Of a stretch of DNA of 64,000 nt, positions 995-36,421 are shown in pieces (position 1 is the stretch's first letter; the number at the start of each line of letters is the position of its first letter). The stretch lies in contig OZ024742.1 in the NCBI GenBank assembly GCA_964016885.1, forward strand, positions 8,618,001-8,682,000. Reading direction: 5' to 3'. Made by a program: the position numbers and the translations under genes. The notes under the pieces are model-generated. The model had not been told where the DNA came from. It saw only the letters and a list, made by a program, of their open reading frames with translations, and did no database searches. This stretch comes from Eledone cirrhosa. Lineage: Eukaryota.

Positions 995-1008
995 ATATCT
1001 CCCTATCT
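885..1008. repeat. (ATCT)n microsatellite, 5' flank of the Tx1 array
   Basis: Tetranucleotide run ending immediately before the first element. Confidence 0.95.
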
Positions 1009-1571
1009 GCCTGACGCGTGAAACATCGCTGGTAAGCTTTTTTGTAAATTTCAATACAAAAAACTGAACAAATTGTTTGAAAAAACATATCATTTTGTCG
1101 ATTAACCCCCAAGCTGAATTGTCAGCTGAGTGGTAATCCAATTTTTTGCCCCTGTAGGGGCGAAAATTTAATTAAAAGTTGTTTTAAAAAATCAAATTTT
1201 GCCAACTATAAAACATCAATAGCTCGGAAAGAACGCTAGAGAACGTCGATAGAGAGAAGAGAGGTAGAGAGTCATATATTAATCTCCTTCTACTATGGAC
1301 GTCGCCATGGATACGACTGTCAACAAAGAGACAAAAATAATATTACCATTTGAAGATTTTAAATTTCTACCATTGAAGCGGAGAAAAATAACACACAAGA
1401 AAACACAGGAATTAAACATATTAACATACATACGCATGAAAAAGACAACAACAACAACTCCATAGATACATCTACACATAAAGTTTCACCTCTCAAGAAA
1501 TTGCGATTTCCAACACCAAGGCTAACAACGATAACAACAACAACAACAACAATAACACCACAAAAAAAAAC

Positions 1572-3080
1572 ATGTCTTTCGCTGAAACAGTGAACAAAAA
1601 ACAAGATTTTATAAATCTTGACATGTCCAATGCAAGAGATATGCTCCAGCAAGTGAGAACATTTGTAACCTTCGAAGACAAGGGTGGGTTTAGAATTAAA
1701 TCACCTCTCGAAATAAAAGAAGAGACAGTTCGAAGGACTGTGACCTTCAGGAATGTCTCCATCACATCGAGAAAGCCAATATGTGTTAGTCAAGGAGACA
1801 TAGAAGCCACCTTGAAGGAGACTATAACAAATATTGACTTCCTTCAACGAGGAAAACAGTACGGAAGTGTTTCCGTACTGTTTAAAAGCGAGGCACTCTC
1901 CCCAAAACATTCTGTGACACCAATGGTGTCAAAAGCATTCACCTTTTTCCCTACGTACATGGGGAAAAGGACACAAAAAAAAATATATATATACCACCAA
2001 ACATTAACATCTGGTGGATCTTGGCTGGCTTCGTGGAACCAGAGACTAATACTATTCTTTCAATACAAAAGTCTATTAGACAAAGGTGGGCGGGTACTGA
2101 TTTGGAGATTCTGATGCAAATGAGGCCGGAGAGAATCTCCAAAATACCCGAAAAAGTCGTCATCAACGACAACAACGAAATAAACATTTCGGTAGAGGGG
2201 TGTAAACTTCATTGCTTTCTCTGTGGTAGCACAGCTCACCTAAAAGCCTCCTGTCCTTCACAAACACACCACAACAACATCATTAAAAAAACACTATTAC
2301 CAACACCAACATCAAAACAACCACCACCACAAGTAAAGCAACAGACGAAACGAGCAAACACACCAACACAAACAGCCACTCAACCAACAACAACAGACAA
2401 CACCCCTGAAGAACACAGCCCCACCCCATCCCACTCCATCAAACACTACCACAAACACACACACCGAAACACCACACATCATACTCCTACCCCACACTCC
2501 TGACGATGATTATTCATTAACAGATGAGGCTGCTTCTTTTCTTTAATTGAAGAAGGAGAGCCTCGGAAATCTAGAGACACCACAAAACCCCCAAAACTCC
2601 AATCACCAACACCAACATACCACCACAGACTCAAACAACAACACAAACAACAACACAAACAACACCACAGTCAAACATCCCCCTACCAACAAAACCAACA
2701 CCAACACCACCCCAAACACAAGCACCCACCATAAAAAGAAAACTCCCGGACGAACAACAAACTAAAACAACACAATAAAATCGCAAACAACAATACGCAT
2801 ACATCAACACAAACAACAAGAGTTTCATGGAGGTCATCTCCCAAAACCCCAAGGTGGAGACTGAGGACAAAACTTTCGTGAAAGCAGAATAGTCTCCACA
2901 CCTAAAACTAATAAGGGTTTCGATAGAAACCTATCAGAAATTGATAGAACAATTTTCGCAGAATGTTGGCAAAAACCTATTAACCGCGTCTTATTAAAAT
3001 GTTTCCCCACCCCACCCAACACCCCTACCAGAACTGAAATGGAGATTGAGCAACCCGATCTCCAAAAAACGAAAAGGTAA
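1572..3080 (+). pseudogene. Tx1 copy A ORF1 (zinc-knuckle nucleic-acid-binding protein), frameshifted
   Basis: ORF pieces 1572-2114 and 2021-2503 are homologous to ORF1 of copy C (SFA...TFFPTYMGK, RPERI, knuckle). Ends ...PDLQKTKR* at TAA 3078-3080. True start is upstream and not resolved. Confidence 0.8.
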
Positions 3081-3121
3081 GTGAACCTTTTCGTCCTTTT
3101 CGCCAACTCTTCACCACCAAC

Positions 3122-4032
3122 ATGGCTAGTTTACGAGTTGGAAGCGTGAATGTGCGTGGCCTAGGGATGCCCTGGAAACAGAGCCAACTTTTAAACGACC
3201 TTCTGTCACACGGTATGGATGTGAAAGCCATCAACGAGTCCAGGATCCACAACAGGCAGCAACTAACCCCCATCTTCGTCTCGCTGACGGAGCTGCAGTC
3301 CTGGGTCAAGAAAAGACCGAAAACGATGGACGCCTGGCACATTAAATGCTCTCAGGCGCTCACAGTCCTCTGGCATGCAGGCGCAATCAGTGGAGACTCC
3401 ACTTCGACATTCTATAGAGGGATTGTACGCTACAAGAGCGACGACGTGCTCGGAGAGACTCTGGGCGTCGAAGACGATGAGATTACCAGTCTGTTTGGTA
3501 GGACTTTCCGCCCGAGACCTATGGACAACTTCCAGAGGTCCCTGGGATAGCCGTGCTACCGAGGAGCTCTACCAGTTCGTGATAAGATCTACAGGCACGG
3601 ACACCCCGGCAGGGATCCTTCAAAGAGGACGTGTCCAAGATGCGCGCAGGACATTGAAACCGTCCTGCACGCAATTGTACACTTCTGTGGAACTATGCAG
3701 AACAACTGTTGTTGCGTATGGGTCAAATCGAGTTGACTGCCGAGTCCATAGTAAGGATCAAACCGCCAGCCTCTTTCAAAAACGAAAGAGAGGCGGTTTT
3801 CCTCTGTACAGTGGCTATGGTGAAAGAAGGTATATGGTGGACGAGATTGAGATGACTGAAGACAGATGCCTTTCTCTCCGGACAACAATTGATTCCCTTC
3901 TTTAAGTATCACTTTAGAAGGAGAATCAGAGTGGAGAGAGAGGCACTGCACCCCAGTAAATTTACTGAAAGGTGGGTAAATGAAGAGAAAATGACCCGAG
4001 TGATTGGGCCTTCTCTGTTTATAAGCCTGTAG
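3122..4032 (+). pseudogene. Tx1 copy A ORF2 remnant (APE N-terminus fused to C-terminal region)
   Basis: ...RQQLTPIF joins directly to VSLTELQSWVKKRP; the whole RT is missing; stops and frameshifts follow. Confidence 0.85.
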
Positions 4033-4265
4033 GTTAAAGAACAGAGCAAAAGGAAGAAAGGAGGACTTGCAGAACACGCTCCTGGAGTTGAGGGTTGTTC
4101 TATCGACGGGGTATTAAACAACCAATTTATAGCGCTTCCTCCCTATTCGGGATTTCGATTGTTGTAATTGTTTGTTTTATATTTTTTTACACGACTGTAT
4201 GTAAAATCCCCGGCATGTCTTTGTATTGTCCACTTTTCTTGTGCGCCCTTGTGGCAAATAAAGAA

Positions 4266-4314
<49 letters not shown>
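4266..4314. repeat. (ATCT)n spacer/tail
   Basis: Lies between copies A and B. Confidence 0.95.
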
Positions 4315-4315
<1 letters not shown>

Positions 4316-5303
4316 GGCGCCTGGCACACCGAGTGTGCCCAGGCGCTCACGGCTCTCTGGCAGGCGGAACCGGCTGTCAGTGGAGAATCCACCTCGTCAT
4401 TCTATAGAGGGCTGGTGGTTAGCAGGTGCGACGACGCCCTCGGAGAAGCCCTAGGCATGGAGGAAGACGAACTGGCCAACCTTTTCGGTAGGACATTCAG
4501 CCCGGGACCCATGGATAACTTCCAGAGGTCTCTGGCCTGGCAATGCTACAGAAGGGCTCTGCCCGTTCGAGAAAGGCTCTACAGACACGGGCGCCCGGGT
4601 AGGGACCCCTCGAAAAAGATCTGTCCCAGATGCGTGTGCGACGAGGAAACCGTTGCACACGCATTGGTACACTACTCGGGCATTGCCGATCTGTGGGGCT
4701 ATGTCGAACAACTGCTGTCAAGGGTGGGACCGATCCGGTTGACCACCCAGTCTATCGTAACGATCAAGCCGCCTCCCCTCTTCAAAAACGAAGAAGAGGC
4801 GGTGTTTCTGTGCGTAATAGCCATGGCGAAAGATTTTGTATGGTGGACGCGTCTGAAAGGACTGAGGTCAGACACCTTTCTCTCTGGCCAACAACTGGTC
4901 CGTTTCTTCCGATATCATTTCGGAAGAAGGATCAGGATGGAGAGAGAGGTGCTGCACCCCAGCCGTTTTTATGAAAGATGGGTGAAAGTGGCGAGAATCG
5001 CCCGTGTGAATGGGCCTTCACTCTACATCAGACTATAGGTGAGGAAGATGAAAGACCAAGGGAGCACCCCTTCTCTGTGCTCCCGAGGAAAAAGGTTGCA
5101 CACTTTTTTTCGGGTGTGTGTGCGATCCCCCAAGGCGCCTCCTTTCTATTGAGGACTTTGTTATAAATTTTTTTTTTGTTACATTTTATTTCCTTTTTAT
5201 ATATTGTTATTGCCTCCTCCTTATTGAGGACGCCTTGTTTTGTAAACTCCCCCCATTGTACTTGTCCCACTTTTGATGCCCTGGTGGCAAATAAAAGAAA
5301 CAT
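4315..5303 (+). mobile_element. Tx1 copy B, 5'-truncated (~1 kb)
   Basis: ORF2 C-terminus (CPRCVCDEETVAHAL) and 3' UTR closely match 10120-11105; AATAAA then (ATCT)n at 5304-5328. Confidence 0.93.
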
Positions 5304-5545
5304 ATCTATCTATCTATCTATCTATCTACGATGGACACATGTGCTGAGCTCGCTCGGTAAGTTTTGTTTAAATTCATCCGGAAATTGTAAACTGTTAACT
5401 TTCATTTTTGTACCATTTTGTAGAGGGACTGCCAGGTCAAATTTTGATCTGGTCGGTCTCTCAAAATATTCTGCGCCTTTGGGCGAAATAGTATTGTAAA
5501 CATTTTATCTTTCGAAAAACTTCGAAAAACCCTATTTTGAGAAAA

Positions 5546-7385
5546 ATGGCTGAAGCATCTTCACCATCAATCAAAGAAGGAAAGGGGAAGTCATACTCAC
5601 AGCTTTCCCTGCCACTGTCACAGCAGCAGATGCCAAAGGCAGAGGTCAGAGAGAGGAAGAATTGTCTTCACCTGTTGACCGACCACTAGATGTAGCCACA
5701 ACTATACAAGAAATTGAAAACAACAACAACAACAACGACAACAACAGCAACAATAAAGACAACAAAAACAACAACAACACAAACGTCACAAGTACCCACA
5801 CACCAAACGAGAAAGACAACAACAACAACAAAGATGAAAACAACTCAAACGACGAGAAACAAAACAATACAAACACCAACAACGAAAACAAAATATCTTT
5901 TGCACAAACGACTAAATTATCAGTCGCGTATGTGCTGGAAGATATTTCAAAAGCAAAAGAAATGCTGGAAAAAGCCAAGAAATATGTATCTTTTGGCGAA
6001 AACGGTTCGTTTTCTATACATTCACCTCCAGAACTAAAATAACAGACGGAATTACGAACTGTCGTATTCCGTACAATTTTAAATAAAACAAAAAAACCAG
6101 CACAACCATCTCAAGCTGAAATTCAATTAGTACTGAAAGAAGCGATGAGAGACATCACATTTATACAAAAGGATAAACTCTATGGGAGTTTATCCATATT
6201 GATGAAAGACGAATTGGCGGCGAAGAAATACTCTGTGTCGCCAATTCGTTCCAAACACTACACCTTCTTCCCCACCTACATGGGTAAAAAAACCCAGAGA
6301 ATATGGATAACCACCATCACCCCAAACATAAACTACTGGTGGTTACTAACCGGTTTCCTCAATCTAGACGAGGACAACCTCATTTCAATAGGAAAGGCAT
6401 CCGGCGACGCGTTCAGTGGAACGAGCATCGAAGTTCTGACCCAAATAAGGCCAGAACGTATCGCCCAAATCCCTGAGCGCGTCATGCTGGATGACCGTAC
6501 CCACCTCAACATTATTGTGGAGGGTAGGCGTCTCTCCTGTTACCTCTGTGGCAATAGAGGTCACCTGAGGGCTGCCTGTCCCCAGCTCACACAGAAAAAA
6601 AAACACTGCTACCAACACCAATACCACCCCAACAACAACAACAAAAACCAACGACACCACCACCACCACCACCACCACCACAACAACAACAACAACAAAC
6701 ACGTGAAAAAAATAACACAGAATACTGTCCCACCCAATCCCTCCCCACCCAAAACAAATACAAAAACACACACACCGCAAACACTACCAGAAAACATACC
6801 CCTCCCACCCAACAAGGAAGACGAACCCCTTTCGTCGCAAGACGAAAAAGATCCCTTCCAACAAGTAAAAAGAAAGAAGAGGAGACGCACCACAGACACA
6901 CATGTAATCTTTACCCCCCCCCCCAAGAGAACACAAACTACACACAACAAACCACCCCTCCCTGTCACACGACACTAACTGCTACACAAAAAAAGACCTT
7001 ACAATATACATACATGAACACAGACAACAAAGAATTACGGAAAACAATTTCAGCAAACCCTTCGGTCCAAACTGAAGGGCCTAACTTTATAACTGCTGTG
7101 GGACTACCTCATTTAAAAATGATAAAAGTCCCAATGAACTTGTACAAAACACTGAAAATAAATTTCACGGAGGACGTGGGACCGCCCTGCGCCAAACCAA
7201 TCAACCGCGTCCTCCTAAAAAATGTCAGCCCCCCACCCCACCCAGACACCCACTCAACCACAAACACCCCAACCCCACAACACACCGATGCCCCTTCATT
7301 TCCACAAACCACCACCCCACCCAACAACCCATCCCCAACCAGCATGGAAATTGAGCGGCCCGTTTCCCGGGACGCAGAGAGGTAA
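5546..7385 (+). pseudogene. Tx1 copy C ORF1 (CCHC zinc knuckle), disrupted
   Basis: Pieces 5662-6042 and 6145-6978 are in the same frame separated by a stop, then 7014-7385. Knuckle CYLCGNRGHLRAAC. ATG at 5546 is an inferred start. Confidence 0.85.
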
Positions 7386-7409
7386 GTGCCTTTTCTCCTT
7401 ACCACCAAC

Positions 7410-10400
7410 ATGGCTGTGAGTAGGGTGTCTAAATGCGCGTGGCCTGGGCTCATCTTGGAAGCAAGCAATGCTTCTAAATGACCTCAGCTCACAATCTATA
7501 AATGTGATGGTCATCTGCGAGGCACGGATCAGCAACATGCGGCAGCTAGCCCCCACCTTTGACGACTTTGAGATGCACGCATCTCTCTGTCAGCCCGGAG
7601 GTGGGGGTGGGGTTGTCGTACTGCTGCAAAAGCATCTGGGCCTTGCAACACAGATAGTTCACTTGGACCCAGGGGGTCGACTGGTGGTGCTGGACCTTGG
7701 CAGTGGTGAAGGTGGAGCCTTTAGGCTGGTAGCCGCATATGCCCCTTTTGGGACAGAGCGGCCCGACTTTTTCCAGCGTCTGGAGTCTTTTCTAGGGACG
7801 TCCCGTTCCCTGCTTTTAGTGGGGGATTGGAATGGTATCCTGGATGCACGTTGGGACTATGCAGGGGCATGTCCCGATAGAGAGGGATGCAACAGCCTCA
7901 AGGGGTTACTCGGCCGATTTGATCTGGCCGATAGATTTCGACTAGATTTTCCGACGGTGCCAACCTGGTCTTGGTCAAATCGCAGCGGATCATCTAGGTC
8001 GTACCTAGATAGGTTTTTAGTTAGAAATAAGGACAGGGACATTTTAAGTTGTCCAGTAATGCTCATGGTTGGCTATTCAGACCACAAGTTGGTGACCTGC
8101 ATGGTCAACCTTGATAGAACGCATAGACAGGGCCCCGGTTACTGGAAGCTCAACTTGTCCTTGCCGGCAAGTGGAGCTTACAGGGATCGGATTAACACGT
8201 TAGTTAAGGAACGGTTGACTGGAGCGATCGTCAACAGCAGGTGGTGGGTATCTCTAAAGAGAGAGATTAGAGTAGTCTCGATAGAATTTAGTAAGGTTCT
8301 AGCTGCGGATAGGAATAGGAAGGAAAGGGAGCTAATAGATAGAGTAGAAGAGGCAATTAAAAGCGGCGACGTGGCCAGAGTGCTAGCGTCGAGAACGGCT
8401 TTGAGCCAGTTTTTCGAGGCGAAGCACGAAGGCTGCGTTGTCCGAAGTAAAATACGTGCTCTAGGGAACGAGGGGACCAAAGCTGTTAGCTGGGCCCGCG
8501 TGACAGAGGCCAACAGTGGAACTAAATCCACCATCCGGTCTTTGCGAGACCTGGATGGACGGGCGATTCTTGAGCCTAGGCAGATGTGTGAGGCCTTTCA
8601 AAGGCACTTTGCCCGATTGCTCGGGAGGGGCGGGGAGACGGTTGGGAACGTGGACTCCGGTCCATACCTCGACGGCCTGCCGCGTCTCTCGGAGAGGGAG
8701 GCGAAGTCCTGCGTGGAGTCGATTTCGGCCGCTGAGATAGAGGACGTGCTGAGCCAATGCGGCAAACGCAACTCCCCGGGTCTCGATGGTCTTCCTTACG
8801 AATTATATCTAGCTAGGCCGGACTTGTTCCCCGATCTCCTCGAGGCGGTCTACTGCAACTGGCAACAGAACGGGAGAATTCCCTGTACTGTGAGCAAGGG
8901 CGTAGTCACGCTAGTGAGGAAGGACGAGAACAAGGGGGACGAAATAAGTAACTTCAGGCCCATAACTCTGCTAAATACAGAGTTACAGATTTTGGCCAAG
9001 GTGCTAGCAAAGAGGTTGGCGCTTGTCGTGGGCAAGCTGGTGGGAGATGCGCAGACATGCGCTATCCCGTCCAGGTCCATCCATGACAACCTCCACCTCA
9101 TGCGATACATCATAGAGAGGGTTGGGAACGAACCCGGCTTTGGTGGGGCTCTGATCAACTTGGATCAATCTAAGGCGTTCGATAGGGTCGACCATGGTTA
9201 CCTGGATGCGGCTCTAGTGGCGGCAGGCTTCGGACCCGTTTTCAGGGGCTGGATCAATGCTATGCACAGCAGCCGCATCTGCGCTAGGGTCAAGGTGAAC
9301 GGCTACCTCTCGGAGCCGTTCAAAATCGCGCGGTCCATCCGACAAGGGTGCCCTCTCTCCTCCCTTCTGTATGTGTTGACTCTCGAGCCACTACTGCGGA
9401 AGTTGGAGTTGTTGCAGGGCATCCCTTTGGAACCGGGATTGCGGAAAGCGGTGTCGGTCTACGCCGATGACGTGACAGTAATGGTGTCGACGGCCTCCGA
9501 AATCGAGGTGGTCGGCACCTTACAGGAGGAGTACGAAAGGTTCACAGGGGCTAAGCTGAACCGGGACAAGTCTATCGGTTTGCAACGCGGCACGTGGAGG
9601 GGCAGACCGATGCCCTCCGATGGCGTCGTCGGACGCTGGACGGAGGGCCCGGTGAAGTTGCTCGGGGTCTGGTTCGGACCGGACCTCCAGGTGGACAAAA
9701 ACTGGGCGGAGGTTACGAACAGGGTGTTTGCACTGACCCAGAAGTGAGCCAGTTGCAAACTATCCCTGAAAGGTCGGGCGGAGGTGACGAACACCTATAT
9801 ACCGTCCGTCATCTACTACCGCCTGACCGTAGTGCCCTGCCCAAGGGAAACCCTCACCAAGATGGTGCGCGCTCTCTTCCAATTCCTTTGGAAGAGGCGG
9901 GCTCCTATGGTGAGGAGATCCATCTGCTGTCAACACCCTTCGAAAGGAGGGCTGGGGATGCCGTGGCTAATGATGCGTAAACACGCATTAAGGCTACGGC
10001 ACCTCTACGTATTCCTCACCGGACAACCGGTGTGGGCCTCGTTTGTGAGACGAACCTTTCCCAGACTCGTCTCACTCACCGAGCTGCAATCCTGGGTCAA
10101 GCAAAGACCGAGAAAACTGGGCGCCTGGCACACTGAGTGTGCCCAGGCGCTCACCGCCCTCTGGCAGGCGGATCCGGTCATCAGTGGAGAATCCACCGTA
10201 ACATTCTATAGAGGCTGGTACGCAGCAGGTGCGACGACGCCCTCAGAGAAGCCCTAGACATGGAGGAGGACGAACTGGCCGGCCTGTTCGGTAGGACATT
10301 CAGCCCGGGACCTATGGACAACTTCCAGAAGTCCCTGGCCTGGCAGTGCTACCGAGGGGCTCTACCCGTTCGAGAAAAGCTCTACAGACACGGGCGCCCG

Positions 10401-10841
10401 GGTAGGGACCCCGCCAAAAAGATCTGTCCCAGATGCGTGTGCGACGAGGAAACCGTTGCACACGCATTGGTACACTGCTCGGGCGTAGCCGATCTGTGGG
10501 GCTATGTCGAACAACTGCTGTCAAGGGTGGGACCGATCCGGTTGACCACCGAGTCTATTGTAATGATCAAGCCGCCTCCCCCCTTCAAAGATGAAGGAGA
10601 GGCGGTGTTTCTGTGCGTAATAGCCATGGGAAAAGAAGTTGTATGGTGGACGCGTCTGAAAGGACTGAGGTCAGACACCTTTCTCTCTGGCCAACAACTG
10701 GTCCGTTTCTTCCGATATCATTTCGGAAGAAGGATCAGGATGGAGAGAGAGGTGCTCCACCCCAGTCGTTTTTATGAAAGGTGGGTGAAAGTGGCGAGAA
10801 TGGCCCGTGTGAATGGGCCTTCTCTTTACATAAGCCTGTAG
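7410..10841 (+). pseudogene. Tx1 copy C ORF2: APE endonuclease + reverse transcriptase + Cys-rich C-terminus, disrupted
   Basis: APE motifs GDWNG, SYLDRF, SDHK; RT motifs NFRPITLLN, DQSKAFDRV, RQGCPLS, YADD. Stop at 9745-9747; frameshifts near 7416 and ~10218. Confidence 0.95.
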
Positions 10842-11593
10842 GTGGAAAAGAGGAAGGAACGAGGGAGCACCCCCTCTCTGTGCTCCTGAGGAAAAGGGTT
10901 GCACACTTTTTTCGGGGGTGTGTGCGACCCCCCAAGGCGCCTCCTCTCTATGGAGGATTTTGTTATGAATTTTATTTTTTGTTATATTTTATTTTATTTT
11001 TATACATTGTTATTGCCTCCTCCTTATTGAGGACGCCTTTTTGTGTAAACTCCCCCCTTTGTACTTGTCCCACTTTTGATGCCCTGGTGGCAAATAAAAG
11101 AAACATATCTATCTATCTATCTATCTATGTATCTATCTATATATATATATCTGAAATGGCCATCAGTGATAATAGTCATTTCTTAAGTAAAAATGAAATA
11201 TCGAAAAGTAGAAATTGTATGAAAAGTTTCAGCTTGCTAAGACATGGAAATCAAACTTTTTACGTCTCACCGAATTAATTTTCTTAACATTTCGTTCAGT
11301 TTAATATTTATGTTGTCTGTTACAAATGTGATCTGTAAACTAGAAACAAGCACAAAACTACCCAGACAATTTATTCTTGTCGTTTCAGCCACAAAAGTGT
11401 TTACTAACGCGAAAAGAATAATTACGAACATAAGCTAAGGCCTCTGTATTTTTACATTTCAATTTGACCTTTAAACACTATAAAGATATGTTGATGAAGA
11501 AAAGATACGGAAGCCACAGTATGTAGATAACAGGCAAGAAAAATAATCGGTATGGGAACAATAACGCCCACCCCCCACGCATATATATATGTG

Positions 11594-11644
<51 letters not shown>

Positions 11645-11713
11645 ATAAATTCAGAACGCGCCATATATAATGAAAGCAGAAATCATTTGCTTAAATTCAA
11701 ATCTGTACTGCTA

Positions 11714-11771
<58 letters not shown>

Positions 11772-11893
11772 CTAAAGAATGAAACAGTTCTAATCCTGTA
11801 GAATCTCTTCTATATTAAAACTGTTATACTCTGCTATGTATTGATTACCTTACTTACTGTAGTTACCTCCGATTCAACCTGGAATAACGTATA

Positions 11894-11940
<47 letters not shown>

Positions 11941-12225
11941 TGGTATCTCAAATTAGTACCATGGAACAACCACTATTATAGACACCATATATATTTCCGT
12001 GGGTACTTAGTACCTACTGGAATATCTATATCATTTATCTGAAAGCTCCTTAATGTTGAGAAAAAATTGTTGTATCATGCTGCTATTTCTAGTAACAAGT
12101 CTATAATTCCCGCTTTTTCTAACGGCCCATTTGTGAGGTGGTCATTTTAACGGCTTGATTCATTCACCGGGCAGAAGGCGATACATCCACATCTACGTGG
12201 ATTTATATCTAGTAGGTTTGGAAAA

Positions 12226-12305
12226 GCTATCTGAAGAGCTATATCTTTCCATTGGAAATTCTCTGAATTTCCAAACTTTTGATTAGTGAAACGGTCGGTC
12301 ATGGC
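12226..12305 (+). ncRNA. Type I hammerhead ribozyme motif with extended stem II
   Basis: Stem I GCUAU/AUGGC; CUGAAGA at 12231; stem II GCUA...UAGU enclosing hairpin UUGGAAAUUC/GAAUUUCCAA; GAAAC-GGUCG-GUC; predicted cleavage after 12300. Confidence 0.75.
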
Positions 12306-12477
12306 ACTAGAAGAGGTACATATTTAAATTGTATTTTAATTTATTTAAAAGATTGTTTAATGTTTACTTTTCCGCTCATATATATATATATAGAAGGCAA
12401 ACAGAAAGAACAACACAATCGGTACAGTATAAGGAAGGCCTATATTAGGTTAACGCTTGATATAGCAGGAAGAGAGT

Positions 12478-12511
12478 CTTAACGTTTCGGACGCTAGTCC
12501 TTCACCAGAAG
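12478..12511 (-). ncRNA. Minimal hammerhead-like motif (core variant CUGGUGA)
   Basis: Minus strand reads CUU-CUGGUGA-A-GGAC-UAGC-GUCC-GAAA-CG-UUA-AG. Confidence 0.55.
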
Positions 12512-25658: not shown

Positions 25659-28600
25659 TTACAGATATATGCTCAGAGTAGGCCCATTCACTCGGGCCAT
25701 TCTTGCTTCTCTCACCCATCTTTCAACAAAATGCTGGGAAGAGAGCATTTCCCTCTCTACTCTGATTTTCCTTTTCAAATGAAATTTGAAAAAGTCAATC
25801 AGAGCATCACCGAAGAGGTAAGTGCTCGTCTTCAGCCCTTTCAAACGTGTCCACCATACTATCTCTTTCGCCATGGCCACCAGACAGATAAAAACTGCCT
25901 GCCCTTCCCGGCTAAAGGAGGAGGGCGGGGCAATCCTCACGATGGACTCAGATGATAGCCGGATCCGTCCTAAACGCGACAGCAGGTGTTCGACATAAAC
26001 CCACAAGTCACCAATTTTCGGACACTGGACGAGTGCGTGCAGGACGGTTTCGTCGCCCTGCGCGCATCTCGGACATGCCCGGCTGACGGCACCTCCATGC
26101 CTGTAGAGTTTATCCCGAACTGGCAAGGCTCCTGGGTAGCACTGCCAGGCCAGAGATTTCTGGAAGTTGTCCATAGGCCCTGGCCCGAAAGTTCTTCCGA
26201 AGAGATTGGCTAGTTGATTTTCGTCGACGCCTAGAGTTTCCCCAAGTACGTCGTCGCTCTTCCCCTCCACTAATCCTCTATAGAACGCCGAGGTGGAGTT
26301 TCCACCGATCACATTGCCCGATTGGTCGAGGGCTGTGAGCGCCTGAAGACATTCCAGTCTCCAGGCGCTCCCTCTCGGTCTTCGCTTGACCCAGGACTGC
26401 AGCTCCGTCAAGGAAACGAGCTGGGGAAATACGTGTCTAGCAAACGGCGACCACATCTGATCACCGTCGAGGAAGAGGTGGAGATGTCGTAGCCTGAGCG
26501 CGTGCCTGCGCATCATCAGCCACGGCATGCCCAGCCCTCCACGTAGCGGGTGTTGACAACAGATGGACCGCCTGACCATCGGAGCACGTCCCTTCCACAA
26601 AAAGCGAAAGAGCAAACGCTCCAGCGCAGTCAGGCGAGGCTTAGGACAAGGTACGACGGTCAGGCGGTAGCAGATGACAGACGCGATGTACGCGTTAGTC
26701 ACCTCCGCTCGACCTTTCAGGGATAGCTTCCTCTCCGCCCATTTCTGGGTGAGAGAAGCCACCCTGCTCGTCACCTCGTCCCAGTTTTTGTCCGTCTGGA
26801 GGTCCGGACCGAACCAGACCCCTAGCAATTTAACCGGTCCGTCCGTCCAGCGTCCGACGACGCTGTTGGACGGCATGGACCTGCCTCTCCAGGTGCCGAG
26901 CTGCAGGCCCACTGACTTTTCCTGGTTGATCATTGCTCCTGTCACCGCTTCGTATTCTCTTAGTGTAGTGCCGATCGCCTCGATGTGTTTGGCGTTCGAC
27001 ACCACTACGGTGACATCGTCCGCATATGCTGACACGGATCTTCCGCATCCTAGTTCGCGCGGGACTCCCCTCAACGTCTCCAGTTTGTGCAGTAATGGCT
27101 CGAGAGTCAATACGTACAAGAGGGACGAGAGGGGACATCCTTGGCGGACCGAGCGCATGATGTTGAACGGTTTCGACAGGTGACCGTTCACTCTCACCAC
27201 AGAGCAGATGTCGCTGTGCACGGCCGCGATCCAGCCTCTGAAGACGGGCCCAAAGCCAGCCGCCCTCAGGACTGCCTCTAGGTAACGATGGTCGACCCTA
27301 TCGAAAGCTTTCGACTGATCTAAATTGATCAAGGACCCACCCGTGCCAGGTTCCTTAGCTACCCTCTCTATGATGTATCGCATGAGGTGGAGGTTGTCGT
27401 GGATGGATCTGTCGGGAATGGCTCATGTCTGCGCCTCTCCCACCAGACCACCAACGACAAGCGCCAACCTCTTTGCTAGCACCTTGGCCAAAATCTTGAA
27501 CTCTGTGTTTAGCAGAGTTATGGGCCGGAAATTATCTATGTTATCCCCCTTGTTCGGATCCTTTCTCAGCAGTGCCACCGCTCCTCGGCTCACAGAACTG
27601 GGAATTCTCCCGTTCTGTTGCCAGTTGCAGTAGACGTCCGCCAAGAGGCCTCCGAACAAGTCTGGCATCTGTACGTAAAGTTCATAGGGCAGACGATCCA
27701 AACCAGGCGATTTACCCCTTGTGCAGCCAGTCATTGCCTCCCTTACTTCAGCGGCTGTTATCGGCTTTTCGCAACACTTCGCCTCAGTGGCCGAGAGCCG
27801 CGGCAGTCCGTCGAGGTAGACACTAAAGTCCATCCCTCTACCCGGCCCACCGCTGCCCCCGAACAGCTGAGCGAAGTGTCGCTTAAAAGCTTCACACATT
27901 TGCCCGGGATCGAGTAGCATGCGCCCGCCGTGGTCCACCAAAGACCGGATCGTGGGTTTGTTGCCACGACGCGCCTCCGCCACTCGGGCCCATTGAACGG
28001 CTTTCGTCCCCTCGTGTCTGAGAGCACGCACCCTTGCTCTGACAACGCAGCCTTCGTGCTTTGCATTGAAGAATTGGTCAAGGGCCAATTTCGCCGCAAG
28101 CACGTCGGTCGCAATGCCTTTGCTAAGCGCCTCGTCTAATTTTCTAACTAGTTCTCCCTCTGCTCTATTTTTCTCTATTGCTAAAGTCTTACTAAACCTA
28201 ATCGATTCTATTCTAATCGCTCTTTTCAGAGCAAACCACCACTTGTTGTTGACGATGGCCCCTGTCAACGCCCGCTTAACTAGTTCGCTAATCCGGTCTC
28301 TGTAGGCCTTGCGCGCTGGTAAGGACGCGTTTAGCTTCCAGTAGCCGGGTCCTCGTCTATGAAGCCTATCTAAGTCAAGCACACAGATCACGAATTTGTG
28401 GTCCGTGTAGCTGACTATCTTGAATTGTGGACAGCCTATGCTAGACCTATCTATTTCCCTACAAAATACTCTATCTAGATATGATCTGGATGACCCTATG
28501 CGATTTGTCCAAGTCCACATTGGCACATTCGGGAAATCCAATCGGTACCTGTCAGACAGTTCAAAAGGCCTGAGCAGGTTGGTGAGGCTCTTGCACCCTC

Positions 28601-29078
28601 CACCCCTATCCGCTAATCCCACACAGTCCCAGCGTGCATCTAAGATCCCGTTCCAGTCGCCCACTAACACTAAAAAGCGGGACGTTCCAAGAAAGGTCTC
28701 CAGACGCCGGAAGAAATCAGGCCGCCCTGCTCCTGTCGGGGCATAGGCGGCCACTAGCCTGAAAGCTTGCCCATCTCCGCTGGTCACGTCCAGCACCACC
28801 AGCTTACCCTCTGGGTCCAGGAAGATGGCCCGTAAGGCGAGATCCAAACCTCTCCGAAAAAGCACAGCAACTCCTCCACCCGATCCAGGACGGCTGGGAG
28901 ATGCGTACACATCGTAGCCGCCGAAGATCGGTGCGAAGGCCCGTGCTTTGGAGATTCTGGTCTCGCTGATGGCCACTACATCTATGTTTAGTGACCTGAG
29001 GTCGTTGAGCAGGTGACCCTGCTTCCATGACGACCCCAAGCCACGCGCATTTATGCTGCCTATTCTGAGTGAGGTCAT
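25659..29078 (-). pseudogene. Tx1 copy D ORF2 (APE + RT + Cys-rich), single premature TGA
   Basis: 27423-29078 and 25659-27383 are in the same frame; TGA at 27423-27425 replaces the Cys of AQTCAIP. GDWNG, TDHK, YADD and CPRC..H...C are intact. Confidence 0.95.
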
Positions 29079-29113
29079 GTTTAAAATAGAGTGGAAAAGA
29101 TGGGAAAGACCAC

Positions 29114-31201
29114 TTACCGTACTTTTCGTAGAGGAGGGATGGTTTTTACATCCCTTTTCACTTGATCGTCTGGTGAAGGGACCGTTGAATCGTCCCTTCG
29201 GCTGGTCGTCGGCTCTTCTAAGAGAATGTCTGAATATACTCTTCGATTGATGGTTCCTCCTAGGTCCCTGAAATCACCAACTGCGTTGGGGAATTTCGTT
29301 TTAATGTTTGTGTATTGTTTCTGTGCTATTTTTAGCAGTCTTATGTTAGTTGGCGTTTTGATTGGTGCTGGTATTATGTAGTCCTGTTGTGAAATGTCTG
29401 TGTGCTCAATTATGTAAGTCATTAGTTTCTTGTTGTGTGTATTTATTGCCGTGCATTTGTTTTTCTGGGGGTGGGGTGTGGTTCTGCTATTTTCTTGTCG
29501 TTGTTGCTGGGTGTGTGTGTTTTGTTGTTGTGTTTGCGATGTTGGTGCTTGTGGTGGTGGTGTTGAAGGTGTTGTTGGCGGTGGGGTTGTCGCCGGTGGT
29601 GATGGTGGTGCTAGTGTGGGTGGTGATGGTGTTGGTGGTGTTGCTGCTGTGGGTCTCTTTGCAGTAGACTTTACCCTTTTCTCATTTCTTTCCTCCCTTT
29701 TCAAAGGCGACGATGCGCTGCTTCTGCGTTTGTGCCTTCTTACGGCCTTTTGCCATCCCTCTCCCACCTCACACTCCATGTCTGATTCTGTGAGGTCGGG
29801 GAGGGGTACCAGCTCCACTCTTTCACTTGTTGTTGTTGGTGATGTTTGCACTGGAGTCTCTGTTGCAGCTGCATTTGGTATTGCTGTTGTTGTTGTTAAT
29901 ATTTCCACTGCTGCTGCTGTTTTTGATTTCCGTGGCGTGGGTATGGGTGCCACGGACCTATCGTTCCTGGTTGCCGCTTGTCCTGTTGCTGGTAGCCGTG
30001 GAGCCGGATTCGGAAGGAGGGGGGTTTTCTCCTTTCTCAGGGTCTTCTCGTTGCAGAAGGCCCTGAGGTGAGTCTTCGATCCACAGCGAAAGCATTTCGG
30101 GCGTTTGCCCTCAACACTTATGGGCAGTTGAGTGCCGTTATCGAAGTCTATCACATCCGGGATAGCTTCGATGCACTCCTGGTTGGTTTGGATTAGCATC
30201 TCAATGGAGGTGCCGACCCAATCTTCTCTTACTTTTTTCTGTACTTGCAGTACAGTTCTTTTGTCCTCGATTCCGACGAGGACAGACGCGGCCAGCCAAG
30301 AAGGGGCCATTCCGGGGGGGACGTGGGTCAGTTTGACCCTCACAATTTTTTGCCCGCAGTAGGAGGGCACAAACACCATTTCCTCGCGCCTTAGGGTCAC
30401 TACAGATCGGGCCTTTGCCTCCTGGGGTGTGGCAAAAAGTACGTCTACGGTGGCATATTTTTTGCCTCGGGTGATGTGCGTTTTCCGCTGCCACACAGAC
30501 CCCAAGGCTTTTTGTATTTGGGCCTCTGTGGCTCTTTCCACCCTACGGGATTTTGTACTTACTGTACGGTACGTGACCGTACAGTGCTGTTGGGTTTCGA
30601 AAAATGTTTCCGCTGCCTTGCAGATTGCTCGGTGTCCATTCTTTGTCACCATCTTCTTCGCTTCCTCTAATTCCTCATTTGTTATGAGGATTGTTTCCAA
30701 GTTTTTCGCAATACCTGCAAATGAGATTGGTTTTTCTTTGCTGCTGTTGTTGTCGTCAGAGCTTTTGTTGTTGCTGCAGGTACTACGACTACTGCCTTCG
30801 CCGCTGTTGCTGTGGTTGTTGTTGGTGTTGCTGCTGCTAATGCTGTTGTTGTTTATGCTGCTGGTGATGCTGTTGCGGCTGCTACTGTTGTTTTCATTGT
30901 CACTGTTGCTGTTGTTATTACGGCTGCTACTGCTATTATTCCTGACGTCAGACGAATGAACTGGGTTTTCGTATTTCCCGCACACCTGTTTCGTCGCTGT
31001 CGTCGTCGTCGTGGAGAAACCTTGCACGCTTTGCACGAGACTTTTCTTTTCTTTCGTCGCTTGCGAAAGAGAAGGGAGGGAGAGAGACACATTTAAAGAA
31101 GGGAGGGAGAGAGACAATCTTCTCTCTGCTGTAGTGATGATTGAGGAAGTAGAAGACGGAATGAGTGGGAGTGACCTATGCAAATTCTTTTTCGCAGCCA
31201 T
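29114..31201 (-). CDS. Tx1 copy D ORF1, CCHC zinc-knuckle protein
   Basis: Uninterrupted frame; first ATG (MAAKKN) at 31201; knuckle CFRCGSKTHLRAFC. Confidence 0.9.
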   Translation of the reverse strand: MAAKKNLHRSLPLIPSSTSSIITTAERRLSLSLPSLNVSLSLPSLSQATKEKKSLVQSVQGFSTTTTTATKQVCGKYENPVHSSDVRNNSSSSRNNNSNSDNENNSSSRNSITSSINNNSISSSNTNNNHSNSGEGSSRSTCSNNKSSDDNNSSKEKPISFAGIAKNLETILITNEELEEAKKMVTKNGHRAICKAAETFFETQQHCTVTYRTVSTKSRRVERATEAQIQKALGSVWQRKTHITRGKKYATVDVLFATPQEAKARSVVTLRREEMVFVPSYCGQKIVRVKLTHVPPGMAPSWLAASVLVGIEDKRTVLQVQKKVREDWVGTSIEMLIQTNQECIEAIPDVIDFDNGTQLPISVEGKRPKCFRCGSKTHLRAFCNEKTLRKEKTPLLPNPAPRLPATGQAATRNDRSVAPIPTPRKSKTAAAVEILTTTTAIPNAAATETPVQTSPTTTSERVELVPLPDLTESDMECEVGEGWQKAVRRHKRRSSASSPLKREERNEKRVKSTAKRPTAATPPTPSPPTLAPPSPPATTPPPTTPSTPPPQAPTSQTQQQNTHTQQQRQENSRTTPHPQKNKCTAINTHNKKLMTYIIEHTDISQQDYIIPAPIKTPTNIRLLKIAQKQYTNIKTKFPNAVGDFRDLGGTINRRVYSDILLEEPTTSRRDDSTVPSPDDQVKRDVKTIPPLRKVR

Positions 31202-31417
31202 GTTGACTTTTTTGTTTAAAATAAATATTGGGTACAAAACCCCAATAAGCAGTTATTTAACCCCGAAGGGCCAAATAACGGGCAGAAAGACCCCTCTCAC
31301 GAGGAGGAGGGTGTTTTTGTCTACAAGTTGGTCTAAGTTTTAAACAATTTACAATTGTTAAAGCGTTCAAAATTTACAGTACCTTACAGAGTCGAGCCTC
31401 CGTCAACCATAGCATTC

Positions 31418-31452
<35 letters not shown>

Positions 31453-31727
31453 TTTCATTTATTAGCCACAAGGGCCGACATGTAGGGGACAATACAAAGA
31501 CAGGGACAGTGGGGGTTTACAATAAGGTCGAGTAAAAGTGCACAATGGCAAGACTAATTTAACAATGAAAATACAAAATATAAAATAAACTATGCAAAAT
31601 ATAACAAAATAAATTCCCCGATAGGGGGTGGACGACCCTGGGGTGATTCGGGTACCCCACCAATCCTGAACCACCCTGCGCTTCTAGGGCACCCAGGAGA
31701 GCACCCCTCTCCTCAATTTAGCTAGCC

Positions 31728-34700
31728 TATAGGCGCATGGTCAGAGTAGGCCCATTCACACGAGCCATTCTTGCCACATTCACCCACCTTTTAGCAAATG
31801 TACTGGGGGGGCAGCACTTCTCTCTCCACCCTCTCCCTCCTTTCCAGGTGAAACTTGAAGAAGTTGATGAGGGATTGGCCGAAGAGAAAAGTGTCTGTCT
31901 TTAGTCCTTTCAACCTGGTCCACCATATAATCTCTTTCGCAACTGCCACCAGACAGAGGAAAATGTCCTGCTCTTCCTGACCTAAGTAAGGTGGCGGCTC
32001 GATCTTCACTATGGACGCGGCCGATAACTGGATTCGTTCCACACGCGACAGTAGCTGTTCGACATAACTCCACAAGTCAGTAATGCACGGACATTGGACA
32101 AGTGCGTGCAGAACGGTTTCGTCGTTCTGTGCGCATCTTGGGCAGGTCCGTCTGACAGCACTTCCGTTCCTGTAGAGTTTATCCCGAACCGGCAATGCCC
32201 CCCGGTAGCACTGCCAAGCGAGGGATTTCTGGAAATTGTCCATCGTCCCCGGCTCAAAAGTCCTCCGGTACAGACTGGTCAGTTCGACTTCGTCGAGGCC
32301 CAAAGCTTCTCCGAGTGCGTCATCGCACTTGCCCACCACTAATCCTCTATAAAACTCGAGAGTGGAAGTTCCACTGATCGCATTGCCCGCTTGGTAGAGG
32401 GCAGTGAGTGCCTGGCAACATTCCAGGTGCCAGTCACCCAGTCTCGGTCTCTTCTTGACCCAGGACTGCAGCTCAGTCAAAGAAATGAGCTGCGGAAAGG
32501 CCCGTCTGATAAACGGCGACCACACCTGTTCACCATTGAGGCAGAATATCTGGAGATGTCGCAGCCTCAACGCATGTCTTCGCATCATTAGCCACGGCAT
32601 GCCCAGCCCTCCGTGTAGAGGGTGCTGGCAGCAGATGGACCGCCTCACCAACGGAACTTGTCCCCTCCACAAGAATTTGAAGAGGAGCCGTTCCAACTTG
32701 ACGAGGCGCGGACGGGGGCAAGGCACGACGGTTAGGCGGTAATAGATGACGGACGCGATATACGCATTCGCCACCTCCGCGCGACCTTTCAGTGATAGCT
32801 TCCTCCCAGCCCATTTTTGGGTGAGACTGGCTACTCTGCTCGTTACCTCGTCCCAATTCTTTTCTACCTGGAGGTCTGGTCCAAACCAAACCCCGAGCAA
32901 CTTTACTGGTCCGTCCGTCCAGCGCCCCACGACGCTGTTGGACGGCATGGGCTTGCCTCTCCAGGTTCCGAGCTGCAAGCCCACCGACTTTTCCGGGTTA
33001 AGTTTGGCTCCTGTCAACCTTTCATATTCTTTCAATAAGGTGCCGACCACCTCGATTTCTGAGGTGTTCGATACCATCACGGTGATGTCGTCCGCATAAG
33101 CCGACACCGCCTTTCCACGTCCCGGTTCGAGCGGGATGCCCTGAAACAGCTCCAGCTTCCGCAGTAAAGGCTCGAGAATCAATACGTACAGAAGGGAAGA
33201 GAGAGGGCACCCTTGACGGACCGATCGGGAGAGCCGAAATGGTTCCGAGAGGTGGCCATTAACTTTGACCACCGAGCGTGTGCCGCTGTGCATTGCAGTG
33301 ATCCAGCTTCTAAAGACAGGGCTGAAGCCAGCTGCTTTGAGGACAAACTCCAGATACCGATGGTCGACCCTATCGAATGCTTTCGATTGATCTAAATTGA
33401 TCAGTGCCCCACCGAAGCCAGGTTTACACCCTACCCTCTCTATGATGTATCGCATGAGGTGGAGATTGTCGTGTATGGACCTGGCTGGGATTGCGCAAGT
33501 TTGCGCCTCCCCAACCAAATCCTCGACGACAAGCGCCAATCTCTTTGCTAACACCTTGGCCAAAATCTTAAACTGTGTGTTGAGCAGAGTTATGGGCCTG
33601 AAGTTGTCTAATGTATCCCTCTTGTTCTCGTCTTTCCTTATCAGCGTCACCACTCCCCTGCTCACAGAACTGGGAATACTCCCATTCTACTTCCAGTTGC
33701 AGTAGAGTGCTTCGAGGAGTTCGGAGAACAAGTCTGGCATATTTACGTAAAGCTCGTAGGGCAGGCCATCCAAGCCTGGTGACTTGCGCCTCATGCAGCC
33801 GACAAGGGCGTCCTGAATTTCGGCTGAAGTAATCGGCCTTTCGCAGCGCTCAGCGTCGACCGTCGAGATGCGCGGCAAGCCGTCAAGATAGGGACTGAAA
33901 TCCGCTACTCTCTCTGACCCGCCACTCTCCCCGAACAACCGAGCAAAGTGCTGGCGAAAGGCCTCACACATCCGCTTGGAATCGCTTATCTCGTGTCCGT
34001 CTCGGTCCGTCAAAGACCGAATTGTGGTTTTATTACCACGCTGCGCCTCCGCCACGCGGGCCCATCGAACAGCTTTAGTTCCCTCGTTTCTCAGCGCACG
34101 CGCCTTAGCTCTAACAATGCAACCTTCGTGTTTGGCATTGAAGAAATGGTCTAATGCCATTCTCGCCGCTAGCACGTCAGTTGCGATGCCACTACAAATA
34201 GCCTCGTCTAACTTATCTACCAGCTCCCCCTCCTTTCTATTTTTCTCTAACGCTAGTTCTTTGCTGAACTCTATCGAAGTTACTCTAATCTCTCTTTTGA
34301 GAGCCCCCCACCATCTGTTGTTGATGATCCCCCCTATCAACTTTTGCTTAACTAACTTATTGACTCGGTCCCTGTAAGCCTTACGTGCCGGAAATGACAT
34401 GTTCAGCTTCCAGTAACCCGGTCCTAACCTACGCGTTTTATTTAGGTCGACCGTACAGATCACAAATTTGTGATCTGAATAGGCGACCGTTTTAAAAAGT
34501 GGACAGCCCACACTATTTCTATCTATTTTCCTAATGAAGATTCTGTCTATATACGATCTAGATGACCCCATTCGGTTGGTCCATGTCCATACTGGCACAA
34601 TTGGGGAAATCTAGTCGATACCTGTCTGACAGTTGGAACTGGCTGAGTAGGTGCTTGAGGCTTTTGCACCCCCCCCCCCGCTCCTATCGGCTACTCCCAC

Positions 34701-35155
34701 ACAATCGCAGCGTGCGTCTAAGATGCCATTCCAGTCCCCGGCTAACAGTAAAGGGCGAGACGTACCCAGAAAGGTCTCCAGGCGCCTAAAGAAGTCAGGT
34801 CGTCCGGCCCCTGTAGGGGCGTAGGCGGCCAGCAGTCTAAAGGCACCACCTTCGCTACTGCTCACATCCAAGACCACCAACTTACCGTCCGGGTCCCGGA
34901 AGATCGACCTTACCTCGAGATCCAGTCCTTTCCTAAACAGCATTGCCACCCTACCCCCATTCCCGGCCTGCTAACAGATGCGAAGATCTGATAGTCGTCG
35001 AAAATGGGGGCTAGTGCACGCGTGTCAGAAATTCTGGTCTCGCTTACGGCAATCACATCCATTTCCAGCGACCGGAGGTCGTTGAGCAGGCGACACTGCT
35101 TCCAGGGTGACCCCAGGCCGCGAACATTTAAACTTCCTACTCTTAATATGGCCAT
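31728..35155 (-). pseudogene. Tx1 copy E ORF2, disrupted
   Basis: MAILRVGSLNVRGLG start; GDWNG, SDHK, YADD. Frameshifts at ~34950, ~34670, ~34600 and ~31805; TAG at 33687. Confidence 0.93.
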
Positions 35156-35164
35156 ATTGGTAAG

Positions 35165-36421
35165 CTAAGAGAGAGAGAGGGAAGGTTTACTTACCTCCCG
35201 GGTCTTGTGAAGGTCGGGTGGTTCGACCTCCATGGTTGGTGGGGTTTCTTTTGGGAACCCCTTTAAAAGTCTTGATGTGGGTTTCACATTCTGGTTTCCC
35301 ACGTCTTGAGGAAAGCTCTCTCGAATTTCTTTGAAAGAATTGAGTGACATTCGGACCAGAAGCAAATCTTCTGGCACGCAAAATGTGCTCATTTCAAAAA
35401 TCTCCCCCTCTGTTTGAATGTCCTCGCTTCGCGCTAAGAGGGCCATCAGTTTATCGTTGGCCCTTCTGACAAGCACGAAGTTTTTAACATTTTGTTGGTG
35501 TGGTTTTATTTGTTTTCGTTTTGGTGAAGGTGGTGGCGATGGTTTTGGTGGTGTTGTTTCGGGTATGTCTATGTTTGTTGTAGGTGTGGTGTCTGCAATT
35601 TCAGGTATTTGTGTGTTTATTTGTACTTGTGTTTGTTTAGGTTGTTTGCGTTTCGGGGATTGTGGAGGTGGTGTCGATGTTGCTGATGGTGCTGATGTTA
35701 TTGGGGAAGTGTCTGCGTTAGTGGTGTCTGTATTTTTTGTTGTGTGCGTTTTTGTGTTTTGTAGGGGCTTTTTTTTTTTGTGTGAGTTTTCTCTCTTTTT
35801 TTGCACTTTTAGGTTTTCCTTCATCTTCGCTGCTGGAAGACAAAGGGTCTGTGTCTGTGAGTGTCTCTGTGTCTGTGTGTGCGTTTATTTTTTTTTGTCT
35901 ATGTATATAGTTGGGGGGGGGGGGGGGGGGTAGGGGGAGTAGGAGAGCTTTCCTCGTGTTCTCCTTCGATTGGTTTTGGTGTTGGTGGTGATCCGGCTGC
36001 TTTTGATGTTGGTGTCCGTGTTTTTGTTGATGTTGTTTTTGGTGGTGGTGGTGGTGCAGCTTTCCGTGCTGACACTGGCGTTGGCAACAAAGGAGGTTTG
36101 CGACCCCCTGCATTTTTGCGCTGAGGGCAGAAGGCTTGAAGATGCGTGGCTTCCCCGCAAACGAAGCAGCGTGGCCTTCTTCCGTCAATCATTAGTTGGA
36201 TTGTTGTCCCGTCCTGTAGGCGGGCAAAATCTGGGATGTTATTTATATCCTCCGGTTTCATTTGGAGAAGAATCTCCAAATCCATTCCGGACCAGTCTTC
36301 TCTCTCTGTCCTTTTGATGTCCAGGAGGGTGGTGTCTGTCCCCTCCTCGATTACGCATCCCAGCAGCCACCATATGTTCATTCCTGGTGGGATGCTGGGA
36401 ATGCGTACCTTCACTGTCCTT
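35165..36421 (-). pseudogene. Tx1 copy E ORF1 3' part
   Basis: IPPGMNIWWLL...GRRPRCFVCG is homologous to the other ORF1s; frameshift in the G-run at ~35913-35930. Confidence 0.85.

Follow-up and report, generated by a model that had tools for sequence, protein, structure and literature searches.

Families of a Tx1-type retrotransposon lineage in Eledone cirrhosa favor (ATT)n runs, ATCT-type runs, or a fixed site in a 72-bp array

The DNA described in this report is a 64,000-nucleotide stretch of the Eledone cirrhosa genome (hereafter the window; assembly GCA_964016885.1, contig OZ024742.1, positions 8,618,001 to 8,682,000, forward strand) that carries five copies, labeled A through E, of a Tx1-type long interspersed element (LINE). 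Positions below refer to the whole window, and repeat units are given in element sense. Copies A, B, and C lie head to tail on the plus strand with (ATCT)n or a near variant on each side, and copies E and D form a minus-strand stack with (ATT)n on both sides. An initial annotation of this DNA had noted the same division of repeats, which the flanks on both sides confirm, and had proposed one lineage that recently switched its target from ATCT to ATT.

A plus-strand (ATCT)n target tract (884..1008) precedes copy A (1009..4268), and the last bases of this tract, CTCYYTATCT, recur before other copies of the same family and may be an element leader. Copy A belongs to family f1, the basal ATCT family (86-91% identity to the f1 reference L100), and has a full 5′ end, a broken open reading frame 1 (ORF1) with a CCHC knuckle, a deletion of about 2.5 kb within ORF2 (break near 3276), and the 3′ end AATAAAGAAA followed by TC. 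A (TATC)n spacer (4269..4315) leads to copy B (4316..5302), a 5′-truncated member of family f5 of about 1 kb that ends in AATAAAAGAAA plus CA, and a second (TATC)n spacer (5303..5328) leads to copy C (5329..11105), a full-length f5 member that encodes an apurinic/apyrimidinic endonuclease-like domain (APE) and a reverse transcriptase (RT). Its ORF1 (~5547-7385) and ORF2 (~7410-10841) are both broken, and (TATC)n/(TA)n (11106..11148) follows; all of these features are on the plus strand. On the minus strand, (ATT)12 (36423..36469), adjoining four opposite-sense units, lies 5′ of copy E (31451..36422), a member of family f10 that is truncated within ORF1, has a broken ORF2, and ends in AATAAATGAAA plus TC. 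An (ATT)11 spacer (31418..31450) separates it from copy D (25412..31417), a full-length f13 member that is 98% identical to many genomic copies, with an ORF1 (31201-29114) of 695 amino acids carrying a CCHC knuckle and an ORF2 (29078-25659) with a single premature stop near 27423. Copy D is followed by (ATT)5 (25397..25411).

As the initial annotation had recorded, copies A, D, and E end in AATAAA(T)GAAATC; copies B and C end in AATAAAAGAAACA. ORF2 protein identity is 66% for C-D, 67% for C-E, 74% for D-E, 90% for B-C, and 66% for A-C (289 amino acids), and the ATCT copies (A and B/C) have 61-67% of their ORF2 residues in common with the ATT copies (D and E), such that the five copies represent four families rather than the two subfamilies first envisaged. 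The long ORF2 blocks that had been cited as common to all copies are present in C, D, and E and are missing from A, through its internal ORF2 loss, and from B, through its truncation. Nor do these blocks signal closeness. Sequences such as DQSKAFDR and [VI]WFGPDLQ are old, being conserved in an alignment that includes outgroups of 40% identity, and Xenopus Tx1L carries QEKAFDRVDH, so that QxKAFDRVDH is common to both.

Intact ORF2 proteins of the lineage (loci L093 and L073) and that of copy D consist of an N-terminal APE domain, an RT domain, and a C-terminal zinc-binding domain (Pfam PF03372, PF00078, and PF13966), and a CX2CX4HX4C zinc knuckle is present in ORF1 of A, C, D, and E. A phmmer search gave 325 bits to Xenopus YTX2 versus 181 bits to human L1 ORF2p, the two scores coming from different databases. 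The domain content, the CCHC-type ORF1, and the preference for Tx1L over L1 all point to membership in the Tx1 clade of the L1/Tx1 group. Among named relatives, Argonauta hians proteins come first (69% and 64% identity), followed by cuttlefish proteins (38-54%), and the nearest sister group is a set of about 40% identity that includes cuttlefish proteins. Fish and frog relatives reach about 30% among named proteins, and ORF2 is 29% identical to Tx1L, which was the sole named Tx1 reference in our trees, the other relatives being unnamed or generically named proteins. From metagenomes, a search for relatives recovered nothing closer than distant LINEs (mostly 21-33% identity), whose tails were uninformative. 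Two metagenome loci, L146 and L148, carry distant Tx1-like elements with near-identical terminal sequence, which we take to resemble the 3′ part of U2 small nuclear RNA, as expected for Keno-type elements.

The lineage is abundant. In the 3.0-Gb genome, the shared 3′ end has 34,684 matches (15 for a reversed control) and an RT motif has 14,922. We sampled 80 of the first 100 RT-motif sites, all of which lie within the first 23 Mb of contig C1, and the sampled loci form 17 clusters at about 93% identity, of which nine are ATCT-type and eight are ATT-type, a few being single broken copies. Because identity within families reaches 97-99% (f3, f8, and f13) and intact ORF2s were found in f3, f4, f5, f8, and f13, several families are young, although the lineage is not. 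A single copy, L119 (C1:18927600-18934600), is a chimera of two ATT families, with residues 1-700 resembling the group of copy E (72-95% identity to f11) and residues 701 to the end plus the 3′ untranslated region (UTR) resembling copy D (94-99% to f13). Such exchange between families therefore happens. Two subfamilies of the D family (L093 versus L136) have ORF2s of about 95% identity and different 5′ ends, as do f5a and f5b, which suggests replacement of the 5′ UTR and ORF1.

Flanking sequences reveal family-specific microsatellite targeting in both the ATT and the ATCT families. In the ATCT clade (n = 76), 3′ flanks are ATCT-type in 60 cases, AT/CT in 5, other sequence in 11, and ATT in none. 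In the ATT clade (n = 74) they are ATT in 69 cases, other sequence in 5, and ATCT in none, a tally that counts for less as evidence of targeting in that 30 of these loci were picked by their ATT tail. When D loci were picked by protein instead, 29 of 30 had an ATT 3′ flank and the remaining one is an internal deletion. Together with 16 of 16 copies of family f8 that end in a 72-bp array (see below), 166 3′ junctions were tabulated, and none has poly(A); two tail-less ends, L274 and L275, which are probably deletions, were left out. Genome-wide, 14,045 element ends are joined to ATT. Ends of the f1/f7/f8 type are followed by TRTCT 9,871 times and by ATTATT twice, both times as short degraded ends beside a short interspersed element (SINE), and D-type ends are followed by TRTCT nowhere in the genome. 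By a published definition, a LINE family is target specific when more than 20% of its flanks are of one sequence type (PMC4494074); the 3′ proportions here (60/76, 69/74, and 16/16) and the 5′ proportions of full-length copies (23/24 and 11/11) all exceed this value.

The 5′ flanks bear on the alternative that there is no targeting at all, the repeats being element-encoded tails or leaders on copies that accumulate passively in repeat-rich DNA. This alternative draws on the microsatellite richness of the genome and on the short target-like leader found at the 5′ end of some full-length families (f1 and f5b). The family's own repeat precedes 23 of 24 full-length ATCT copies and 11 of 11 full-length ATT copies. 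Truncated copies are unable to carry a 5′ leader, and their 5′ flanks are therefore the real test of targeting. Among these, the family's repeat occurs in 28 of 45 ATCT and 13 of 28 ATT copies, against a background of 4.1% for the ATCT class and 2.4% for the ATT class at 4,343 control positions in the same loci, and the opposite-class repeat occurs in none of the 35 full-length or 73 truncated copies. Five further ATCT-clade truncations (L075, L111, L045, L051, and L059) show a duplication that starts with TATCT and lack a classified flank. The remaining support for passive accumulation is that 32 of the 73 truncated copies have neither repeat at the mapped 5′ boundary, and many of these look like internal deletions or later insertions. 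The initial annotation had proposed to abandon targeting if 5′ flanks proved random or if both repeats were used equally, and neither is the case.

Target-site duplications of 7-22 bp argue in the same direction. In ATCT and ATT families alike they begin two bases past the terminal GAAA, and they start at TATCT or ATTATT even at non-repetitive sites. Several have unique tails, namely TATCTTAC (L111), TATCTGT (L036), TATCTACCT (L051), a 16-mer (L125), ATTATTAC (L206), and ATTATTGT (L203), and the target therefore existed before the insertion. Given these duplications and the fact that the arrays used by f8 also occur without an element, we regard the absence of targeting as largely refuted and as the least probable of the explanations considered.

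The initial annotation read the terminal ATC of copies D and E as a retained phase of ATCT and thus as a relic of a recent ATCT-to-ATT switch. The two bases that follow GAAA, here called the linker, do not fit this reading. In 100 ends from ATT families the linker is TC in 50, AC in 28, GC in 17, and CC in 5, where the search pattern itself required the C, and in ATCT families it is CA, CT, TA, TT, TC, TG, GT, or AT. The linker follows subfamily and not target phase, and the TC that precedes ATT therefore says nothing in favor of an earlier ATCT target. At L111 and L036, the linker CA is not part of the target, and it must therefore have been copied from the RNA and inherited. TC is indeed the commonest linker of ATT families, as a recent switch within one family would predict, and the trees described below do not reject an ATCT-stem root. 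Against this, the first linker base varies by subfamily, ATCT and ATT families are only 62-71% identical over ORF2 (a protein difference of 29-38%), each group contains many families, one Argonauta protein groups with the ATCT families, and ATT is basal in the best trees. A recent switch thus seems very improbable, and the adjective cannot stand.

The split between the two groups is more likely to be old. In trees of both APE and RT, the group of copy E is sister to the ATCT clade and ATT families are paraphyletic (bootstrap 100 in both), and with closer relatives added the E group and ATCT clade remain together (87/99 and 88/99). The direction favored by the best trees, from ATT to ATCT, is opposite to that first proposed and is without statistical force. 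In approximately unbiased (AU) tests, ATT monophyly or a root on the ATCT stem was not rejected (p-AU 0.23, 0.148, and 0.471), and the C-terminal tree leaves the root open, both of which count against this ordering; given these two results, ATT as the starting point is likely and no more. Rejections of ATT monophyly (p 0.00025 and 0.003) were set aside, since those tests had constrained relatives with unknown targets to lie elsewhere in the tree. On balance, the trees lean toward ATT as the ancestral target and ATCT as the derived one. The Argonauta hians protein P0138 joins the ATCT clade (97/100) and has its YVGACPD motif, and the split therefore likely predates the argonaut lineage if this placement holds. 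P0138 is flagged as a long branch, which limits its dating value even so. By this placement, the ATCT target was likely derived early, before the divergence of Argonauta.

A second change of target is evident in family f8, for which at least 351 junctions were found on many contigs. Its target is a 72-bp tandem unit, whose 35-mer has 23,713 exact matches in the genome. The host arrays lie between TTAA-ended inverted termini, the left one reading TTAACCCTTTAGCATT in L080 and the right one its complement in L061, L102, and L228, and arrays without Tx1 exist. The host element is a candidate non-autonomous element of the piggyBac type. The 5′ junction falls at the identical nucleotide in 27 of 27 full-length copies and in one truncated copy (L263); later-fetched loci were chosen by their 3′ junction, and for these only the 5′ side counts as a test. 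The junctions imply loss of 5-7 bp of target at a constant site and not duplication. Relative to GAAA, the target retains a TCTAT core at the register found in the ATCT families, and f8 therefore looks like a narrowed form of the old specificity. The family is nested among the ATCT families (76-88% identity to members of the clade and 88% to f9), and an ATCT clade without f8 is rejected (p-AU 0.006 and 0.004). It was very probably derived later from within the ATCT clade, and would then be a younger switch than the ATT/ATCT split.

Some further features of f8 may be recorded here. Its copies gather toward the ends of the largest contigs (0.5-31 and 431-434 Mb on C1; 3-21 and 396-414 Mb on C2). 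They form tandem runs, and almost every one is full length, in contrast to copies of the ATCT families. Two sequencing runs, X1 from organism A and X9 from organism F (the latter at low depth), contain f8 at about 99% identity. In contigs of run X4 (organism B), D-like and C-like sequence is abundant and f8 occurs only as patches of its 5′ part, a weak hint that f8 is more restricted; low-depth runs X6, X10, and X13 and a lone read from X24 were left out of account.

A comparison of APE sequences yields candidate determinants, as the initial annotation had anticipated. Positions at which all ATCT-group families agree and ATT families differ from them number 11 of 240 in APE, 6 of 200 in the linker region of the protein, 6 of 350 in RT, and 9 of 349 in the C-terminus. 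Those in APE cluster at positions 55-63 (ASLCQPG in ATCT versus AS[PV]SRPG in ATT) and at 152. In addition, the tip of a hairpin is of the NRSG type in ATCT families and reads NR[IM]G in ATT families, with position 193 being S versus I or M. This tip aligns to the βB6-βB5 loop of L1, as judged by alignment and an APE fold model with a predicted local distance difference test score (pLDDT) of 92.5 and a template modeling (TM) score of about 0.8 to the L1 endonuclease. Moreover, the stem of the ATCT clade is longer in the APE tree (0.29) than in the RT tree (0.08). The ATT/ATCT contrast thus supports the placement of candidate specificity determinants in APE.

Taken together, the data are most consistent with a large Tx1-type radiation whose branches target ATT runs, ATCT-type runs, or a fixed site in a 72-bp array, with nicking by APE as the likely cause and a target-like RNA 3′ end as a likely priming aid, an interpretation to which we give a probability of roughly 0.7. 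Insertion would proceed by target-primed reverse transcription, with the APE of each branch likely nicking a different sequence. The endonuclease would nick the bottom strand within TATCT or ATTATT, a transcript that reads past AATAAA into the flanking repeat would pair with the freed 3′ end, and the position of the second nick would determine whether a duplication or a deletion results. Every insertion would leave target on both sides, which would account for head-to-tail stacks such as those in the window. There is precedent for both parts of this scheme, in that endonuclease swaps between SART1 and TRAS1 are reported to shift specificity, and annealing of RNA to target (AGG or read-through bases) is reported to aid priming in SART1 and R1Bm (PMC7265360). 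Our elements would resemble SART1, TRAS1, and R1Bm in this APE-set targeting of repeats combined with RNA-target annealing, the model adopted here. They differ in that those elements belong to the R1 clade and have telomeric or ribosomal DNA targets, and SART1 ends in poly(A).

Several further observations weigh against this interpretation, beyond the truncations without a repeat, the rooting of the trees, and the long branch of P0138 already mentioned. The first 23 Mb of contig C1 supplied most of the loci. One f8 fragment, L112, is without the array and without its own 3′ end. The hairpin loop of f8 is identical to that of its ATCT relatives f7 and f9. In other systems, loop grafts on the L1 endonuclease were reported not to be modular, and grafts from distant endonucleases did not transfer specificity (PMC1950540). 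Finally, no ATT/ATCT cross-clade chimera was found among the loci examined, and the endonuclease and the RNA tail are therefore confounded. A candidate at C2:40485815 (L276) proved to be an ATCT-family copy with a variant end.

In an alternative, the RNA makes the choice. Here, a loose, AT-rich nicker would open many sites, and only those nicks that pair with read-through repeat RNA would be extended, such that the RNA copies its source repeat and thereby selects its own primer. A stray insertion into a new repeat would reprogram its descendants and so start a newly targeted family, whose protein would adapt afterwards, and f8 would be such a switch caught early. It is in keeping with this idea that no poly(A) occurs at the tabulated junctions, that the linker is family-inherited, as are the next two bases in f4 (TTTGTCT), and that a SINE with a Tx1-like 3′ end is likewise found in ATT. 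Family f8 fits as well, since compared with its ATCT relatives it has the same hairpin with a new target, keeps the TCTAT core in register, and has gone from duplication to deletion with about ten APE substitutions. However, APE has a higher density of fixed differences than RT as well as a longer ATCT stem. Landings of ATCT-clade copies in (AT)n, (CT)n, and (ACCT)n founded no family visible in the sample of 80 loci, and no further target class emerged from 100 ends whose third base is atypical. The constant second-strand site of f8, truncated copy included, also points to cutting set by protein. We therefore consider RNA-guided choice of targets, and the self-programming families that would follow from it, to be doubtful relative to determination by APE. 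Family f8 has ten private APE changes, including W116, E121, and Y122 directly past the YAP motif, in a region that we presume to be the βB4-αB2 loop. This loop was predicted to probe the major groove in R1Bm (PMC1950540).

The kind of specificity described here is ordinary, and the targets and the scale appear new. Kibi and Koshi target (TC)n and (TTC)n in teleosts, and crocodilian Tx1 elements target (TTCC)n or (TTTC)n (PMC4494074; PMC3812793). Like those elements, ours are Tx1-type LINEs with an APE, and the microsatellite unit used changes from one related family to another. They differ in that the targets are AT-rich (ATT, and ATCT with a family that leans toward GTCT) rather than pyrimidine runs, and in that they occur in a mollusc, at tens of thousands of junctions, the comparison being one of target descriptions. 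Xenopus Tx1L inserts into the non-autonomous piggyBac element Tx1D, and crocodilian Tx1-Mar inserts into Mariner-N4 (PMC4494074). Family f8 resembles these in using a single site of an apparently non-autonomous DNA transposon that has inverted termini ending in TTAA and also exists empty, and differs in that its site is a unit of an internal 72-bp array, in that it is nested in a microsatellite-targeting clade, and in its deletion of 5-7 bp. Published octopus repeat surveys report L1-Tx1 families and give no targets for them (PMC13282606; PMC8967140), and PMC8869645 likewise offers nothing specific. We found no report of ATT- or GATA-specific Tx1 elements, or of octopod Tx1 targets, in the literature searched, Repbase and Dfam lying outside that search.

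Recognition of microsatellites by APE-type LINEs has been described as not well understood (PMC3812793). The present genome offers graded relatives (62-88% identical) with several intact ORF2s, thousands of natural sites, and three targets, and amounts to a natural experiment with about a dozen diagnostic residues between ATT and ATCT and about ten between ATCT and the array. It also joins in one tree two Tx1 habits that were known separately, namely microsatellite targeting and transposon targeting. A practical warning is that, in these animals, microsatellite markers of the ATT and GATA types are hotspots for insertion.

Two variations on the main targets deserve brief mention. Three copies of family f4 (L065, L084, and L128) have GTCT-rich 5′ flanks and a fixed 3′ end of TTTGTCT, and f4 is possibly a variant that leans toward (GACA)n. 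A fourth major target class was also considered on the basis of 100 of 312 ends with G or C in the third position; these proved to be mostly ATT/ATCT variants, with a few (AC)n, and such a class was rejected.

The ATT repeats of the window are also used by other elements. A SINE at 21974-22152 (minus strand) has (ATT)n on both sides, and its 3′ end, GGCCTTGTGCCTAAA..TAGAAAC followed by AATTATT, resembles that of Tx1. Among fetched loci, the AATTAT continuation is present in 22 of 28 distinct SINE ends, and SINE heads follow the 3′ tract in 5 of 30 D-family loci. This SINE is likely mobilized by the ATT clade.

The (AAT)n tract in which copies D and E sit, in opposite orientation, is the tail of an RT element unrelated to them (22201..25396, plus strand), which has a C-terminal PD..D-type segment and is 26% identical to the Tx1 RT. 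We take it to be Dong/R4-like, its C-terminus being without a Pfam name. Dong/R4 elements use a restriction-like endonuclease. Dong elements are reported to target (TAA)n in a review that lists Dong among the APE-type elements (PMC3812793). The Dong-like element and the ATT clade occupy the same double-stranded microsatellite side by side, with unrelated RTs and opposite orientations. A second, 5′-truncated Dong-like copy with an (AAT)n tail (36470..37025, plus strand) is 99% identical to 24889-25414, and a third lies at 47063-47365; two of the three copies are 5′-truncated and all are edged by AAT/ATT runs. A Dong-like tail hosts 7 of 30 D-family loci.

The remainder of the window contains a minus-strand element (17261-19830) that has a 512-bp inverted repeat of 94% identity, lies inside (TA)n, and has no Pfam match, which we presume to be Penelope-like. 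A long, near-perfect inverted repeat at 20218-20311 lies in a short element between (TA)n runs. Two very long satellites with a 21-bp period and related sequence occupy opposite strands at 37161-46197 and 48159-63995, and their open frames, although thousands of codons long, do not represent genes.

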